The notes: generated by a model not told the origin, from the letters alone. Shown: positions 585-16,946, counted from the stretch's first letter. The stretch is DNA of 64,000 bases from Phyllosticta citribraziliensis (GCF_038025025.1 NW_027117346.1:434001-498000), one strand, 5' to 3'. Numbers and translations are program-made.

Positions 585-1878
585 ATGTCTTCTGGCTCGC
601 CATCGGGCAATCGAAGCCCAGGGCGGGGCCGGTCCCGCACCCGTTCGGCATCGCCAGCCCATTCACGCTCGCCGCGCCGCTCCGTGTCACCTCGCTCAGT
701 GTCGCGTTCTCGTTCAAGGACTCCGAGTCGCTCCCCTACACCGCGCAGCGACCGCCACAGCAGGCGCAATGGTCGGGGCAGGAGCTTCAGCAGGACTCCT
801 TCAAGAAGCGTCACACCGGACCGCAGCTCGAGGCGCAACAGGAGACGAAGCTACAGTCGCAGTGTCAGTCGTGGGAGTGCAACACCACCGAGGAGCTCAA
901 AGGTAAGTCGCAATTCTCGCGCGATGGCTTATGTGGGTCATGGAGGTGCTGGTCGAATTCTAACGCGGCGCAGATTGTGGTCGAGAAACTCACCAAGAAC
1001 GTCAACGAAGAGCACTTGCGCGAGATATTCAGCAAGTATGGGCACATTCAAGACTTGGACATGCCCATCAACCGCTCATGTATGACAACCTCCATCTTTT
1101 GAAAGCCTATACTGACTTCTGGGTAGTCATGACCAATCGGGGCACAGCCTACATCATGTTTGACACCACAGAGTCGGCCGAATCTGCCATTGCCCACATG
1201 CACGAAGCCCAACTCGATGGCGCCTTGATCAACGTCTCGATCGTCTTGCCTAGACGTCGCTTTTCACGCTCGCCTCCGCCCTCGCGCCGACCGCCTCCTC
1301 CCCCAATGTTCAACGACCGGCCGCAAGACCGCTACAATGACCGTTTCAACGACCACCCGCGCAACTACGGTCCTCCGCCTCATCGCGGTGGCTGGCGCGG
1401 AGGCCCACCGCCCCCTTCATATCCATCCAACTCACGCTTTCGCTCCCCACCGCCCTATCGCCGAGCGCGCTCCCCATTGCCCCCACCATCGCGGGGCTAC
1501 GGCGGCCCATCAGGTCCGCGCGGCAGAGGAGGCGGCGTTGGTGGTCCTCATGGCGAGTACAGCTACCGTCCACGCTCGTACTCGCGTTCGCGGTCTCGTA
1601 CGCGCTCGCCGCGCCGCAGCCGCAGTCGCACCCGGAGCTATTCGTCGCGTTCGCCTTCGCGCACACCGCCCACGTCGGCTAGGAGAGGCCGCGGTGGTGG
1701 TGTTGGTGGTGGTGGCGGAGGCAGCTTTAGGGGAAGCCCCGGTCCTGGCTATCCGCCACCTTCGAGGGGCAGCGGCGGCGGTGGAAGTGCGAGGAGGCGT
1801 CGTAGCCCGAGTTACAGCAGCTACAGCAGCTACAGCAGGAGCAGGAGCAGGAGCCCGAGAGGACGAGGGAGAAGGTAG
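585..1878 (+). CDS. RNPS1: RNPS1-like SR-rich RRM splicing / exon-junction-complex protein (exons 585-902, 974-1079, 1127-1878)
   Basis: RS-rich N-terminus, RRM (IVVEKLTKNVNEEHLREIFSKYG...NRGTAYIMF...MHEAQLDGALINVSIV) and RS/RGG/Pro-rich tail. Introns GTAAGT 903..CAG 973 and GTATGA 1080..TAG 1126 join three ORFs in frame. Confidence 0.85.
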
Positions 1879-5720: not shown

Positions 5721-7011
5721 ACGCACCGCGCCACCTCAGCAAACATCCATCGTCAAACAGCACACGTACTGCACTGTACCTAGGCCAGGATCAATAGCAG
5801 GGCACGGCAAGTTCACTTGTGAGAGGCAAACAACAAGCCCAAGTCCTCGCCGCTTTACCGCCACCACCACTAGCTCCCTCATGTCTCCGACTCGACACTC
5901 ACTCTCCCTCTCGCTCCCTGCCTGCACGCACGCAACAGCGACAAGGCACAGACAGAACAGACCACCAACCTGCCTGAGTACGGGAACCCAGTGTACCTCA
6001 CCGACCGCACAAACCCCTCACCACTCACCGAACCGACCATCCCTCCCTCCACCCATCAATCCAGGTAGGTATCCCCAAACGTGCGAGATGCGATGCGCGC
6101 AAAGTGCGGCGGCCCCATCCCTGCCACCCCACCCCACCACAACCCACTACCGCACGCACTAACCCCCAAACAGCCTAACCCCCCAACCCACCCACAGACA
6201 AGGATCGCAGCCAGAACAAGGCAAGGTGGGTAGGGCTGGCTGGCTGGTGGCGGGCGGGCGGCAACCGGACAGGGCAGGGATGCAGCCGCCGCACAAAACG
6301 CGCATCACCAATTCAGCCGCTTTGTTGGTGACTCTCTGCGTGCGCCGTTTGTGCGGACGCTTCTTCCTTGATTTCGTTTGGCTTTTGGGGTCGAAGGTTC
6401 GAGGTGGGTGGGCAAGATAGGTAATGAGCGAGGGGTGCGTGGGTGCGATCGATCCGCGGGCCTTGTCGCGACAATTGTGCGGACGGGCGCGGCGGGCTGT
6501 TTGGTGTGGGTGACGAGGGACGTGGCGAGCAGCAGGCAGGCCATGTGAAGGCATGGCGCAGTTTCGCTGAGGTGTGGGCGGGAGACGAAAGCATTCACAG
6601 AGGCATTCATCGCACATAGCAGATGGGAAAGTTCAGGTAGAGACAGTACTTGATATCCATGGTCGAATTCTACCTCGAAGATGGCCCCGTTCAATCCATC
6701 CATCCATCCACCAACCCATATATTCCTGAAACCCAAAGCCGAGTCAAGCTCTCGCCAGGCACGAGGAAAGACAAGAGGAGAGAGAAATGAGTAGGAAAAA
6801 GAAAAGAGGAGCAACTACTGGTATCCATCATAACAATACAAAAGCCTAGCCAAAGTAGGCTGTTCAGAAGGTGAAAAGGAAAACCGAAAATCAAGAAAAT
6901 TCATCCGTCGTCGTCGTCAATCCGTGTTGAGCCTTTGTAAATCTCAATCTTCCTCCACCATCCTGGGTATCAACCGTGTAGCGTTTGTGGCCGGCTCGTG
7001 GTGGAACCGAT

Positions 7012-8243
7012 TTAGGAGGCAGGGGCCTCATTCTTGCCGCACTCGGCGCAGGCACATTGGCCGGCGGCACATGGGCACTCGGAAGAGTTGGCGCCGCAGT
7101 TGCACTTGGTCTTGTTGGTGCCGGGGACGTGCTCGAATCCGGACACGTCGCTGTTCTTTGCGCAGGACTCGCAAGCGCAGGCACCGGCGTCGCAGCCGCA
7201 CTTGGAAAGGGTGGCGCCGCAGTTGCACTTGGTCTTGTTGGTGCCGGGGACCGACTCAACGCCAGAGACGTCGCTGTTCTTGGGGCACGAGCCGCAAGCA
7301 CACTTGCCGGGAGCGCAGCCGCAGGCTTCGGTGGAGCCGCTGCAGTTGCAAGTCGTCTTCTCGGTGCCGGGGACTTGGTGGATGCCCGACACCTCTGGGT
7401 TCTTTGCGCACGAGTTGCAGGCGCACTTGCCAGGGGCGCAAGGGCAGGTGGTGAGGTTGGCACCGCAGTCGCACTTGGTCCTGTCGGTGCCGGGGATGGT
7501 CTCCATGTTCATGTTCATGTTGCCGGGGGAAGAGGGTTTCTTGAGGTTGGCGAGGTGGCGAGCTTCGTTGTGGACGTCGATGACTTGCTTGCTGCCTTGT
7601 TCGTAGAATTGGCGGAGCTTTTGGCCAGTGGGTGTGCCGAGGGCTTTGTCGAAGTAGGAGTTGAGGCTGCGCCAGCCAGCGTTGGCCTTCTCGGTGACTT
7701 TATACTTGGTGTCAATAGTTTGGGCCCGTTCACTAGCTTTGAACTTGGTGTCGAAATTGGTTAGAGCCGAGGTGAAGCGGGAGGATAACCCTTGCTTGTG
7801 GTCTAGCTCGAGGGCCCTTTCGATCGCCCTGTCGCTGATGACGTATCCGTGGGCCAAGTACTCGGCAATGATGCGGGCACGCGGCTTGTCCTCTTGCTCG
7901 ATAGGGTCTTCTTTGGGGAACTCTTCGCCGGCCTTGCCACCAGCAATGTCGTCGAGGCTCTTGGACGACGAGACCTTGACCTGGGCGGGACCGAGCTGGG
8001 TGTTGTCGAGGAGCAGGGCAGTCTTGGCAGCCGTCTCCTTCTCAAAGGTAACGGTCGCAGATTGAGTGCCGTCGGCGGTAGGCGTGACGGAGAGGTGCGA
8101 GATCTTGCCGCTTTTAGGCAGGGTTAGAGCTTGTTTGGGTGGAGGAGGGGAAGGGCGGGCAATGCGTACCAGAAGCTGAAGAAGTCGCGGATCTCCTTTT
8201 CGCTCGTCTGAGCGGAGATGTGTTCAACGTGAACCGAAGTCAT
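7012..8243 (-). CDS. vip1: Vip1-family RRM protein with four C-terminal 7-Cys metallothionein-like repeats (exons 8243-8170, 8110-7012)
   Basis: MTSVHVEHISAQTSEKEIRDFFSFCGKI...ATVTFEKETAAKTALLLDNTQLG...EQEDKPRARIIAEYLAHGYVISD...DVHNEARHLANLK is the Vip1 signature. Intron GTACGC 8169..AAG 8111 with a CTAAC branch site. Confidence 0.85.
7039..7494 (-). repeat. Four intragenic 123-bp (41-aa) tandem repeats, each CxC-x6-CxC-x4-CxC-x2-C
   Basis: The first Cys codon of each unit starts at 7473, 7350, 7227 and 7104, exactly 123 bp apart; 28 Cys in total. Confidence 0.95.
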
Positions 8244-9348
8244 GGCGAGATGCGGAATTTGTGCGGATTGTAGAGGGGTACCAAGGATTGCGGGTTGCGG
8301 GGTGACGGTTGCGTTGCGTTGGTTGAGTGGTAAAGGGCGAAGCGTGGACAGGTTTATGTAGGAGCTGGAGGCTGGTCGAGTGATGTAGGCAGGAAGCTCG
8401 GGGCACTGAGGGGCAACGGGGAGACCTACCTCAGCGAGACAGAACAATCCAGATTCGCTTGCGCCACACACTGCGTCATTGTCGCAGGCCACCACCAACG
8501 GCACCGTCCTGAGTGGCTGTGGTGGCATGCACGCGCCGGCAGTGGCCAGCTGCAGCAACCGCGTCCATTCTCACGCCTGCGAATTGTGTTGCCTGACGGA
8601 CCACATGTTTCTCATTGCGCGTCTCCTTGCTAGGTGCTTGTTTGCTTCCCGGTCGTACCCAACTCCCTGAACAAAAGGCTGCAGCGCCAACCCTCAACCA
8701 CCACCGCACCTCAAGGCAGCAGACATTTCAACCCGCCGTGACAGATGACAGGCTGCTGCTAAGTGTAGGACCTCGGAGCTCAAACGCTTGACCGTTAGCA
8801 GACGGCGCGCAGAGCCGACGTCGATGTGTGCCGGCGGAAACAGGATGCCAGGTTTCCGGGCGCGTCGTTTACGCCTGCCAGGATGTGCGTTTGGGACTCG
8901 CCGCTCAATCCACGATCCACGTCAATCCTGAAAATCATCAGCGCGGAATCATGTGTCGGCGCGCTGTGTCGCGTCGCTTGCAACCGTCGACGGCGAATTT
9001 TTATCCTCTCCTCGGTCCCCCGCTCTTGTGTTTTCCGGAGAAGCAATGCCATGTATCAGGGCCCCTTATCGCCCAGCTCGGGGACCCCTGGGCCCCTGGA
9101 CCCCCTGCAACCCCACCCCCATTCTCGTGTGCATTATCACTCAAGTCTCCCCACCTACGATAGGTGGAGGACAGGCCATGGCACAGCTTGGTAATGCCGA
9201 CCCAAAGCAGCAACCATGAAACTCATGGATTCAAATAAATCGCATCAAGATGCCGAGTCCCAAACCCCAACTTTGCATGTTGCAGCGTTAAGTTTTTGAA
9301 GTTTTTTTTGGTTTTTTTTTTTCACTCCAAGACCGACACATCCTCGAC

Positions 9349-10703
9349 ATGTTGCGCTTTCTTGGACTCTCTTCTGCGCCAGAAGATGTCAAGCCACAGC
9401 CTTCGCGCGGTCTTCCGGCCTCGTGGTATCGATCTCCAGAACTGCACCACCTCGAAAGAAGAGCCATCATTTCAAGAAAGTGGATACTAGTCACGCACTC
9501 GCTCAGGTTCAAGCAACCCGGCGACTACGCGTCGTTTGTATACGCCGACTTTCCATTCTTCCTGGTCCAAGACCGCCCAGGCAACATCAATGGCTTCCAC
9601 AATGTCTGTCGACACCGAGCATATCCTGTCGTGGAGACGCGGTCCGGCAAAGCCAGCATCCTCAGCTGCAAGTACCACGGCTGGTCCTACGGCTTCAAGG
9701 GCAATCTCGCCAAGGCGCCGCGATTCGACACGGTCAAGGGATTCGACAAGAGCCAGCATGGCCTGCTCCCCATCCACGTGCGCGTAGACCCGGCAGGCTT
9801 CATCTGGGTCAACCTTCAAGCGGGCGAGCCGGACGTCAAGTGGGAAGACGACTTTGGCGGCGTGTACGACAAGCCGCGGATGCAGAATTTCGACTTTGCG
9901 GGCGGCTATGTGTACGACCACGTGTGGGACATGGAGCTCGAGGCCAACTGGAAGGCAGTGATTGAGAATTACAATGAATGCTACCACTGTCCGACCTCCC
10001 ACCCCCTGATTGCGGGCGTGTCGGATCTGACAAAGTATAGAGTGCAGCCGAGCGGGGGCTGCCTGGAGCACGAAATCATCAACAAGGAGGAGCGGGGCGA
10101 GGACGATGCGTTTCGCCGGTCCATCACTTTCTTCTTCCCGTCGACCTCGGTCACCATCACGTCAGTCGGCTCGGCCATGTCTGGCCTCCCCCTGTTCAAA
10201 CGAGGACTGACATGAAAAAGTCAAAACTTCTTCTACATCCAGCGCATGATTCCCGTGGGCGCCACCAAGACCAGGATCGAAAACGAAGTGTATCGGTCCC
10301 ACGGGGCCACGGATGAGGAATTCGCAGCCATCAACGCTTTCTACAAGCAGGTGCTCGAGGAGGACAAGCAGCTGTGCATCGGGGCACAGGAGAATCTCAA
10401 CGCCGGCGTCTTCATCAACGGCGAAATGCATCCAGACACGGAAAAGGTGTGGTCGACCATGATTCCAACATGGAGACGTACTGACTGGTTGTTTGCAAGG
10501 GCCCAATACACTTCCAGAATGCCGTCCGAGAAGAAGTCATGAAGCATCGCGCAAAGGAATTGCAGCAAGGCGGCAGGGAAATCTGGCCAGCGACTCCCCA
10601 GTTGATTGGCGAAATGAAGACGGGCAAGCTGAGCGAAGAAGAGGCGTTTTGCTCAGAACTCGAGCGGGCGAGCTGCGCGTCACGGCAGGAGCTGGCGTGG
10701 TGA
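9349..10703 (+). CDS. Rieske [2Fe-2S] non-heme iron oxygenase alpha subunit, choline monooxygenase-like (exons 9349-10160, 10221-10446, 10500-10703)
   Basis: Rieske motif CRHR...CKYHGW and mononuclear-iron motif [13 protein letters not shown]...EED. Two introns restore the frame through to ...QELAW*. Confidence 0.9.
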
Positions 10704-15509: not shown

Positions 15510-16946
15510 CTACCGGCTCACAGAAATCATCCAGCCGTCATCAAACGCCTTGCCCAGCTCGTCAACGCCGCCCCAAACAACGACGCTCGCGCCCTCGACC
15601 TCCGTGCCCCTGGCCGCCGCAAAGCCCGTCCGCCCGCCCATGCCCTTGGCGCCGGTCCCGGACAGCGACAGCGGCCGCTCCCTGACGACGTCGCCGGCGT
15701 CGTTGACGTACTGGTACAGCACCTCTGCCCAGAGGCCCTCGCGCGTCTCAAGCTGCGTCTGGCGGCGCGTGGCGTCCTTGAGGCTGGCGCCGCTGCCCGC
15801 CGTCGCCGGCAGCTGGTACACCCACATGTCGTCCCAGTAGGCGGGCGGCTCGGCGAGGCCGCGCAGCTCGCGCTCGGCCGCCGTCACGGCGTCTTGGTCT
15901 TTGCCGCCGCCCACCAGCAGCAGGTAGTGCCGGCCGTGGCCCGTCGCGTACTCGAGCAGCGACGCGCCCGTGCGGTTCCCGTCGGGCCCTTCGCCCTGCT
16001 CGTGCGGCAGCAGCTCCCAGTGCGAGTTTTGTGTACGTGCTGGTGGCCCGCCGGCTTCGGCGAACTTCCACAGCCCGCTCACGTCCAGCGTGCAGAGCTC
16101 CGAGGGCACGACGTTGCCGCCGCCGCTGGTGTCGGGCGTCGCGGCCGCTCCGCTCGATCCGCCTATCAGGTACAGCCGTGTCCCAACCATCGCCATGGCG
16201 GCGCCGATGCGTGCGGGGCCCGGCGGTGCAGCGAGCGACGTCCACGTCCGCGTGCGAATGTCAAACGTCCACAGGTCGTGAATAGGCGCGCCGCTGGCAA
16301 TGGGATTGGTGCTCGCGCCGCATGATATGAAGAGCGTGCCCCAGGAGCCAGGGGCCGGCGGTTCGGGGACGTTGAGCGAGGGGTCGGGCGGCTGTTGCGG
16401 GAGGCTCGGCGGTTGGCGCGGTGTCGATTCCTTTGGCCTCGGTTCCTCTGTCGATGTGAAGGCGTGGTGGGAGCGCGGCGCTGGCGTTGGCAGAGACGCA
16501 TTGCTCGGGTGCAGCGCGGTCCAGGTAGACCGAATCGGACTGAAGACCCAGACGACTCCTTCAGCTTCTTGCTCGTCGTCTTCCGACAAGACGCCCCCGT
16601 AGATGAAGATGTCGTCGCCGACTACCGACGCGCTGTGTCCTTTGCGCGGTGCGGGGACCGGTCCATCTGCTGCGGCGGGTTTAGCCTTGATCGAGTAGTA
16701 GTCTGCTTCCTGGACTCCCGAAGACGGCAGGATGATGACGTGCACGTCGTTGTCGGTAATGAGGCCGTCGGCATCCTCGCCTCCAAAGACGTATGCGCGC
16801 CCTTTTATTACGCTGATGCTGTGTCCAGTGCGCGGTAGCGGTGCTCCTTGGATCGGTGCAAAGGTCGCCTTGAAGGTTCGTTCGCCCTTGGCCAGCGATA
16901 GCGCGCCTTGGACGAGGTTGCCAGCGGCAGAGAGAAAGTTTGGCAT
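15510..16946 (-). CDS. Kelch-repeat beta-propeller protein
   Basis: Repeated kelch motifs (PRTGHSISVIKGRAYVFGGE, PRKGHSASVVGDDIFIYGG, LWTFDIRTRTW, RLYLIGG, VVWGG) in an intronless 478-aa ORF. Confidence 0.85.
   Translation of the reverse strand: MPNFLSAAGNLVQGALSLAKGERTFKATFAPIQGAPLPRTGHSISVIKGRAYVFGGEDADGLITDNDVHVIILPSSGVQEADYYSIKAKPAAADGPVPAPRKGHSASVVGDDIFIYGGVLSEDDEQEAEGVVWVFSPIRSTWTALHPSNASLPTPAPRSHHAFTSTEEPRPKESTPRQPPSLPQQPPDPSLNVPEPPAPGSWGTLFISCGASTNPIASGAPIHDLWTFDIRTRTWTSLAAPPGPARIGAAMAMVGTRLYLIGGSSGAAATPDTSGGGNVVPSELCTLDVSGLWKFAEAGGPPARTQNSHWELLPHEQGEGPDGNRTGASLLEYATGHGRHYLLLVGGGKDQDAVTAAERELRGLAEPPAYWDDMWVYQLPATAGSGASLKDATRRQTQLETREGLWAEVLYQYVNDAGDVVRERPLSLSGTGAKGMGGRTGFAAARGTEVEGASVVVWGGVDELGKAFDDGWMISVSR

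Follow-up and report, generated by a model that had tools for sequence, protein, structure and literature searches.

The window examined in this study is a stretch of 64,000 nucleotides (nt) from Phyllosticta citribraziliensis (GCF_038025025.1 NW_027117346.1:434001-498000), a fungus belonging to the Botryosphaeriales within the Dothideomycetes. Between 8243 and 7012 its minus strand carries a two-exon gene, whose spliced product of 390 amino acids (aa) consists, in this order, of an RNA recognition motif (RRM), the helical core of a Vip1 protein, a short Met/Asn linker (after residue ~215), and four tandem modules that contain seven cysteines each (7-Cys modules). These parts belong to one gene and are transcribed into one continuous spliced mRNA, and the module is a conserved unit of variable copy number that, apart from a single metagenomic protein (P0131), was seen on no proteins other than Vip1. 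Coordinates are given in Table 1.

Table 1. The Vip1 gene and other features of the window (positions counted from the first letter of the window; ORF, open reading frame; pLDDT, predicted local distance difference test)
Feature	Position	Strand	Description and basis
Exon 1	8170..8243	(-)	ATG at 8243; start, first 24 codons and 2 nt (RRM start); translation, splice reconstruction, RNA contigs joining 8170 to 8110 in three runs
Intron	8111..8169	(-)	59 nt, GT..AG, CTAAC branch-like site; sequence and joint (CT..AC) in X1, X3 and X8 contigs
Exon 2	7012..8110	(-)	Rest of RRM, helical core, linker, four 7-Cys modules, stop at 7012-7014; translation and X8 contig
RRM domain	7990..8228	(-)	Residues 6-65, interrupted by the intron; Pfam RRM_1 on P0321
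Helical Vip1 core	7540..7896	(-)	Six predicted helices, conserved QEDKPR..AEYLAHGY motif; AlphaFold2 (P0001 residues 72-190), invariant alignment columns, S. pombe Vip1 match
Core-tail linker	7495..7539	(-)	NMNMNM run at 7504-7521 (three in-frame ATGs); translation; pLDDT <50 at P0001 residues 192-197
7-Cys module 1	7372..7494	(-)	41 aa, from residue 231; pLDDT block means 84-89; clade across three Phyllosticta species, support 99/91
7-Cys module 2	7249..7371	(-)	41 aa, from residue 272; pLDDT block means 84-85; P. citricarpa identical, P. capitalensis 94% identical
7-Cys module 3	7126..7248	(-)	41 aa, from residue 313; pLDDT block means 62-73; orthologous clade, support 100/93
7-Cys module 4	7015..7125	(-)	37 aa, from residue 354, reaching the C-terminus; pLDDT block means 84-87; orthologous clade, support 99/93
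ORF with Rieske [2Fe-2S] and ring-hydroxylating alpha-subunit domains	9349-10215	(+)	Divergent to the Vip1 gene
Kelch protein	15510-16946
ORF with weak partial RRM_1 match	1078-1878	(+)	E 6.7e-4, 19.9 bits against a cut-off of 20.7

The N-terminal part of the product is that of a Vip1-family RRM protein, as the initial annotation had proposed. A partial database protein (P0321) that agrees with the window protein without mismatch along 319 aa matches the Pfam family RRM_1 with an E-value of 3.9e-07 and 30.3 bits against a cut-off of 20.7, and possesses the RRM of the Vip1 family, whereas the protein of exon 2 alone (P0001, 365 aa, no internal stop) has no Pfam match since the first 25 residues are missing from it. 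A core-only query of 190 aa, devoid of the tail, retrieved 453 proteins at E<=0.001 from 1.84 billion representatives and matched the Vip1 of Schizosaccharomyces pombe (P0244) at 6.1e-27, with 40% identity along query residues 1-190; together with 25 invariant columns in an alignment of 119 relatives, this shows homology to the Vip1 core. The S. pombe protein (257 aa) shares the homologous RRM and helical core, but it differs in its tail, which is rich in Ser, Thr, Pro and Ala and bears no 7-Cys module, the whole protein having a single Cys.

The tail encoded in the window is of a very different composition. Every module follows the spacing CxC-x6-CxC-x4-CxC-x2-C, giving a total of 28 Cys, and the remaining residues are largely Gly, Ala, Ser, Asn, Thr and Lys, with one Phe, two His and neither Trp nor Tyr, so that the translation agrees with the nearly aromatic-free array of four 7-Cys modules described in the initial annotation. 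That annotation had also spoken of four exact 41-aa repeats, which is right for the period but not for the sequences, since any two modules are 49-65% identical in protein, and module 4 is shorter and lacks the VSG end. The divergence of the modules in protein, in DNA (62-74% identity) and at third codon positions (57-65%) shows that the amplification is old. Tandem Repeats Finder reported a period of 123 nt with 3.4 copies, 72% matches and a score of 392. Six-frame translation of the whole window yields four instances of the 7-Cys pattern, each inside this gene, and the pattern was obtained in 35 of 100,000 shufflings of the tail's own residues.

Evidence that core and tail share one mRNA comes from RNA contigs of four public runs, which were compared over 6700-8600. 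Three of the runs (X1, X2, X3) are from the same species, and their contigs show 0 differences from the window; the fourth (X8) is a library recorded as RNA-Seq of a related organism and departs from the window by 62 other letters and 44 gap positions. The boundary between core and tail is bridged in all four runs (X1 7306-7818, X2 7222-8010, X3 7222-7923, X8 6809-8110), and the 59-nt splice joint (8110 to 8170) is present in X1, X3 and X8, the contigs of X2 ending at 8010. A single X8 contig of 1453 nt extends from 6809 into exon 1, taking in all four modules, linker, core and splice joint on the way. The initial annotation had named a transcript that stops or splices before ~7500 as the observation that would speak against a fusion; such an ending was looked for in the RNA contigs and was not seen, nor is any joint inside the tail by which it would be skipped listed in the contigs of the three same-species runs. 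Contig depth is high for this gene, and such depth is no basis for ranking genes by expression. A low-depth X8 joint from 7447 to 7565, with 153 other letters in between, was set aside as probably belonging to another organism.

The related species' mRNA (X8) was also compared codon by codon. The linker of that mRNA has small in-frame deletions, and the indel region was left out of the codon count, which is partial (21 further differences are likewise not in it): of the 21 codons classified, the tail contains 17, with 9 synonymous and 8 non-synonymous changes, and the core 4, all of them synonymous. No Cys is lost among the listed differences, and one Cys codon is altered synonymously.

Public models of this gene disagree in length, giving products of 390, 386, 344, 319 (partial) and 308 aa, and this disagreement would be expected if the repeat array were an artefact of assembly or annotation, or if the tail lay outside the Vip1 reading frame. 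We regard such an artefact as having practically no chance of being true, and consider it excluded by the identity of the same-species RNA contigs, by the 1453-nt contig of the related species that joins four modules, core and splice, and by the presence of four-module records in five Phyllosticta species; moreover, the modules are too diverged in DNA for an error of collapse or expansion.

The individual models deserve a remark of their own. The 308-aa model of P. citribraziliensis (P0003) is short of 82 aa, exactly two modules, yet otherwise has 0 mismatches to the window protein; P0321 ends within module 3; and two models of 344 aa, from P. citriasiana and P. citricarpa, are missing 46 aa inside the repeat array. 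Given that no joint skipping those parts is listed among the same-species RNA contigs, the disagreements seem to stem from faulty annotation or assembly and not from isoforms, and the public models of this gene need RNA-guided correction inside the array.

The fusion is not a peculiarity of one species. In the size range of 200-639 aa, the exon-2 query detected 1688 relatives at E<=0.001, and 119 of the best 120 that were analysed carry at least one 7-Cys module, the sole module-less protein being a record marked partial; this ranking favours tails, as the query itself had one. One module is found in 24 of the 119, two in 73, three in 13, four in 4, five in 2 and six in 3, counts that are slight underestimates since the pattern misses a few degenerate modules. 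The spacing 6/4/2 is kept in 257 of 258 modules of these relatives, and conservation is not confined to the cysteines. Across 243 canonical modules, Thr precedes the first Cys in 97%, Lys or Arg stands two residues before it in 92%, Pro and Gly occupy the x4 spacer in 81% and 99%, respectively, and Lys follows two residues after the last Cys in 98%. Named carriers include many Dothideomycetes, Helotiales and Chaetothyriales, two lichen-associated lineages and Geoglossum, so that the fusion has been retained in three or more named classes as well as in Geoglossomycetes and lichen-forming lineages.

Within the wider family, as sampled by the core-only search, which is free of that bias, a canonical module is present in 22 of the 150 best representatives, and, among the 91 of them that include the end of the core, in 19 and absent from 72. 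Named members devoid of the tail are S. pombe Vip1 and the Sordariomycete relatives Cytospora, Daldinia and Hypoxylon, which, taken with the wide spread of the tail, makes the latter an old addition that not all Vip1 proteins share. The suspicion voiced in the initial annotation that the fusion is older than its four-fold amplification is supported, one- and two-module tails being the commonest state in relatives. The union of a 7-Cys module of thionein type with an RRM protein seems to have lasted hundreds of millions of years, and the number of module copies has been re-tuned repeatedly. Among distant Vip1 relatives (P0198, P0223, P0241, P0171, P0185, P0182 and P0207; ~38-53% core identity) other tails with 8-40 Cys were observed, in which the first spacer is 5, 6 or 8 and the CxC-x4-CxC-x2-C half is mostly retained. 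Macrophomina phaseolina has two Vip1 records, one with a single module (P0035, 291 aa) and one with two (P0123, 279 aa), which may represent a paralogue or a strain difference.

As for the history of the four-module state, a four-module record exists in all five Phyllosticta species seen. The window protein has 0 mismatches to two records of P. citribraziliensis, 7-15 to those of P. citrichinensis, P. citriasiana and P. citricarpa, and 33 to that of P. capitalensis. In a tree of 60 modules built from 33 columns, a number too small to settle the deep forks, modules 1, 3 and 4 of the window each group with their counterparts from P. capitalensis and P. citricarpa in one clade (support 99-100). 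This module-by-module orthology places the four-module state before the split of these species. Other Botryosphaeriales seen, namely Saccharata, Aplosporella, Lasiodiplodia, Macrophomina, Neofusicoccum, Botryosphaeria and Diplodia, have one module. In Teratosphaeria (modules 1-5), Exophiala, Bimuria, Clathrospora and Diplocarpon (modules 2 and 3 identical) the modules cluster within the species, which points to repeated independent amplification or homogenisation. Variation between one and six copies, combined with clustering within species, is the modular evolution typical of metallothioneins.

Outside Vip1 the module was sought with the tail alone, in searches that need shared 5-residue words and that distant thioneins could therefore escape. 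Among proteins of 88-280 aa there were 40 matches, 39 of which are Vip1 proteins or fragments, and among proteins of 30-87 aa there were 3, all starting with the end of the Vip1 core or the linker; within these two size ranges no free-standing relative of the module was found, nor any link to the thioneins of Tremellales. The remaining match, P0131 from a metagenome, has a DUF3072-like N-terminus (precomputed PF11272) fused at the Vip1 linker and followed by two modules. It is possibly a chimeric contig or gene call, and if real it is the sole carrier of the module seen outside Vip1. A search of the ESM Atlas with the tail gave no usable match.

These searches also bear on the proposal that, beside the full-length protein, a transcription or translation start within the Met cluster of the linker yields a free four-module metallothionein as the active form, which would be compatible with any of the functions considered below. 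Three in-frame ATGs do lie just ahead of module 1, and in 55 of the 119 relatives a Met precedes the first Cys of some module by 11 or 13 residues (45 and 34 modules, respectively), whereas Met makes up 0.9% of residues overall. However, the leader Met is absent from the other 64 relatives, the tail-only searches returned no free-standing relative, and every RNA contig that covers the linker extends into the core, contigs being by nature silent about transcript starts. An internal start would seem improbable.

What the modules may do can be approached from their predicted fold and from their likeness to known metal-binding motifs. AlphaFold2, run with the 119-row alignment, predicted an RRM-like sheet and helix, six helices, a linker of low confidence and then compact modules, modules 1, 2 and 4 having pLDDT block means of 84-89 and module 3 of 62-73. 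The predicted template modelling score (pTM) of 0.30 for the whole model fits an arrangement like beads on a string, and module 1 modelled alone reached a mean pLDDT of 81.0 and a pTM of 0.53.

Among known motifs, the closest in architecture are the copper-thioneins of Tremellales (CnMT1, CnMT2 and TmMT), which likewise consist of tandem 7-Cys blocks joined by short spacers, have small residues between the cysteines, and vary in copy number among relatives. In the part of PMC4755600 available to us, the 7-Cys boxes of CnMT are described as forming Cu5 clusters and TmMT of Tremella as a demonstrated copper-thionein with the block CXCX3CSCPPGXCXCAXCP, whose second half fits that of the module, CxC-[A/E/P]PGx-CxC-xx-C-[A/P] (consensus C-P-C-A-P-G-K-C-A-C-x-x-C-A/P). 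The match in spacing with the Cryptococcus blocks that the initial annotation put forward is to be taken as putative. These thioneins are free-standing, in contrast to the C-terminal domain of an RRM protein seen here. The metallothionein of Neurospora crassa and Agaricus bisporus (family 8, 26 aa) similarly has seven Cys, with three CxC pairs and a final C two residues on, but it is a single free peptide, unlike the present domain of a 390-aa protein whose mRNA spans core and tail.

Two copper-responsive regulators resemble the module in another way. The copper-sensing REP motif of Mac1 is given as CXCX4CXCX2CX2H in the excerpt consulted (PMC4992176), and Cys3-Cys7 of the Vip1 module have exactly its spacing CXCX4CXCX2C; the shorter Cu(I)/Zn(II) motif of CopY, CxCx4CxC as it appears in the accessible text of PMC12648655, is contained within the module as well. 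The differences are that the module has two extra Cys upstream, that the terminal His of the full REP motif is replaced by Asn (48%), Ser (26%) or Ala (21%), and that Mac1 and CopY are DNA-binding regulators, whereas an RRM protein is concerned here.

From these analogies we lean, without regarding the matter as secure, towards the tail being a modular metal-thiolate domain, probably binding Cu(I), of the fungal copper-thionein type, which is tethered to Vip1 and has a capacity set by the number of modules. In favour of this stand the invariant Cys spacing, the bridging transcripts, the conserved modules with their conserved non-Cys positions, the likeness of motif, the range of one to six copies, and the confidently predicted fold. 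In such a protein a flexible linker would connect the Vip1 RRM and helical core to four 7-Cys modules that fold independently. Each module would wrap a small metal-thiolate cluster with its seven Cys; the likeliest metal is Cu(I), while Zn(II) and Cd(II) are possible. By analogy with fungal copper-thionein blocks, each module might hold about four to five Cu(I), or some 16-20 for the tail. The tail would then make Vip1 a tethered, high-capacity metal buffer, tuned by tandem duplication and loss of modules.

Several observations weigh against a copper-thionein tail. Pfam yielded 0 families at E<=10 for the tail or for exon 2, the curated metallothionein model being among those that were not matched, and a sequence search of the PDB gave 0 matches for the tail and one of chance level for module 1 (NPC1L1, E 6.9). 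Neither Foldseek against the PDB, with the whole model or a single module (nothing at E<=0.001), nor VIA-align with a single module (0 of 48,161 chains at Z>=2) found a structural relative, negatives that say nothing on the fold itself as an irregular cluster domain of 44 residues makes a poor query. The first spacer is 3 residues in the TmMT block as printed and 6 in the Vip1 module. The initial annotation had considered the spacing close to that of the Neurospora metallothionein, a claim not supported in that form by comparison with the printed pattern, X2-CXC-X5-CXC-X3-CXC-X2-C-X3 in the seen portion of PMC4755600: both spacers differ (X6/X4 in the module, X5/X3 in the pattern), and the modules thus have neither the Cys pattern of family 8 nor its character of a small free peptide. 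One distant relative, P0185, has X5/X4, that is, a first spacer of the Neurospora type. Furthermore, the existence of tail-less Vip1 proteins in S. pombe, Cytospora and Daldinia implies that the tail is not needed for the function of the core. Finally, a dedicated domain with a structural or regulatory role would account no less well than a plain metal sink for the strongly conserved residues between the cysteines and for the old association with Vip1 alone.

Such a regulatory role could take the form of a metal-sensing switch, in which occupancy by Cu(I) or Zn reshapes the tail and thereby toggles the binding of Vip1 to RNA or to partners, by analogy with the Mac1 REP motif and CopY. It would account for the REP spacing of Cys3-Cys7, for the presence of the module on Vip1 in 39 of 40 tail-only matches and 3 of 3 short ones, for the retention of the fusion across the lineages named above, and for the near invariance of the non-Cys positions. 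On the other hand, the terminal His of REP is absent, copy numbers of one to six with repeated lineage-specific amplification are not expected of a sensor, and the RNAs bound by Vip1 are not known even in S. pombe, according to the part of PMC7397868 at hand. We consider a pure switch unlikely, although it is the most credible of the alternatives to a copper-thionein tail.

The other possibility raised by the fixed residues is that the modules are structural zinc-cluster domains, serving as interaction surfaces for protein or nucleic acid with no role in metal homeostasis. The compact modules predicted by AlphaFold2, the Thr, Gly and Lys fixed beside the cysteines, and the lack of similarity to any metallothionein family model in Pfam would all be in keeping with it. 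Rapid gain and loss of modules and their homogenisation within species would be unusual for an interaction domain, however, and the CxC-rich, nearly aromatic-free composition dominated by Gly, Ala, Ser and Lys is thionein-like; there was also no structural match to any zinc domain in the searches mentioned above. A purely structural function therefore appears doubtful to us, more so than a switch.

Buffering and switching could also be combined. It is conceivable, if somewhat less probable than a switch by itself, that in Dothideomycetes, Leotiomycetes, Chaetothyriales and lichen-forming relatives the long-sought cytosolic copper-thionein is the Vip1 tail and no free peptide, and that the loading of its clusters also switches the activity of the RRM and core. 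What becomes of bound RNAs or partner proteins would in that case depend directly on copper status, and the number of modules, four in Phyllosticta, would set both the buffering capacity and the sensing threshold.

Metallothioneins are almost always small free-standing proteins, and the small metallothioneins of plant-associated, rock-inhabiting and lichen-forming ascomycetes are hard to annotate. If the Vip1 tail binds copper, part of the copper-buffering capacity of many such ascomycetes would be located in it, a natural series of one to six modules would be available for testing capacity against module number, and metal-controlled RNA-protein biology would become a possibility. The finding also bears on the citrus-dwelling species of Phyllosticta, as copper sprays are used on citrus.

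The fusion seems never to have been described, widespread as it is in filamentous fungi. Full-text searches, whose coverage leaves out most subscription journals, found no paper in which Vip1 is said to have a Cys-rich or metallothionein-like tail, and papers that mention both 'vip1' and 'metallothionein' concern other proteins, judged by their titles. The novelty is of smaller scope than the initial annotation implied, the four-module architecture being genus-wide and surpassed by tails of up to six modules in public protein sets. There the fusion proteins are stored as 'Protein vip1' or 'RRM domain-containing protein', and the tail is without a family model. 'Protein Vip1' was among the ten genes with the highest expression in germinating conidia of Pseudocercospora fijiensis (PMC10607838) and was more abundant in melanised Paracoccidioides (PMC7711940), the tail not being remarked on in the available parts of either report.

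Turning to the surroundings of the gene, a scan of the 1057 nt upstream with consensus motifs for copper, zinc and stress elements revealed no sites of Mac1, Ace1 or Zap1 type; it returned a few matches resembling metal-response elements (MRE) or stress elements, with no control for comparison. The genes around it, those for the Rieske oxygenase and the Kelch protein included, reveal no connection with metal handling, and the ORF at 1078-1878 is probably one exon of another RRM-protein gene. Immediately upstream, an X1 contig of 3578 nt begins at 8268, 25 nt before the start codon, and has a second joint of minus-strand type from 8371 to 8430 (58 nt, CT..AC), at a word depth about one tenth that of the Vip1 contigs. 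A longer, intron-containing 5' leader and a neighbouring transcript are both possible sources.

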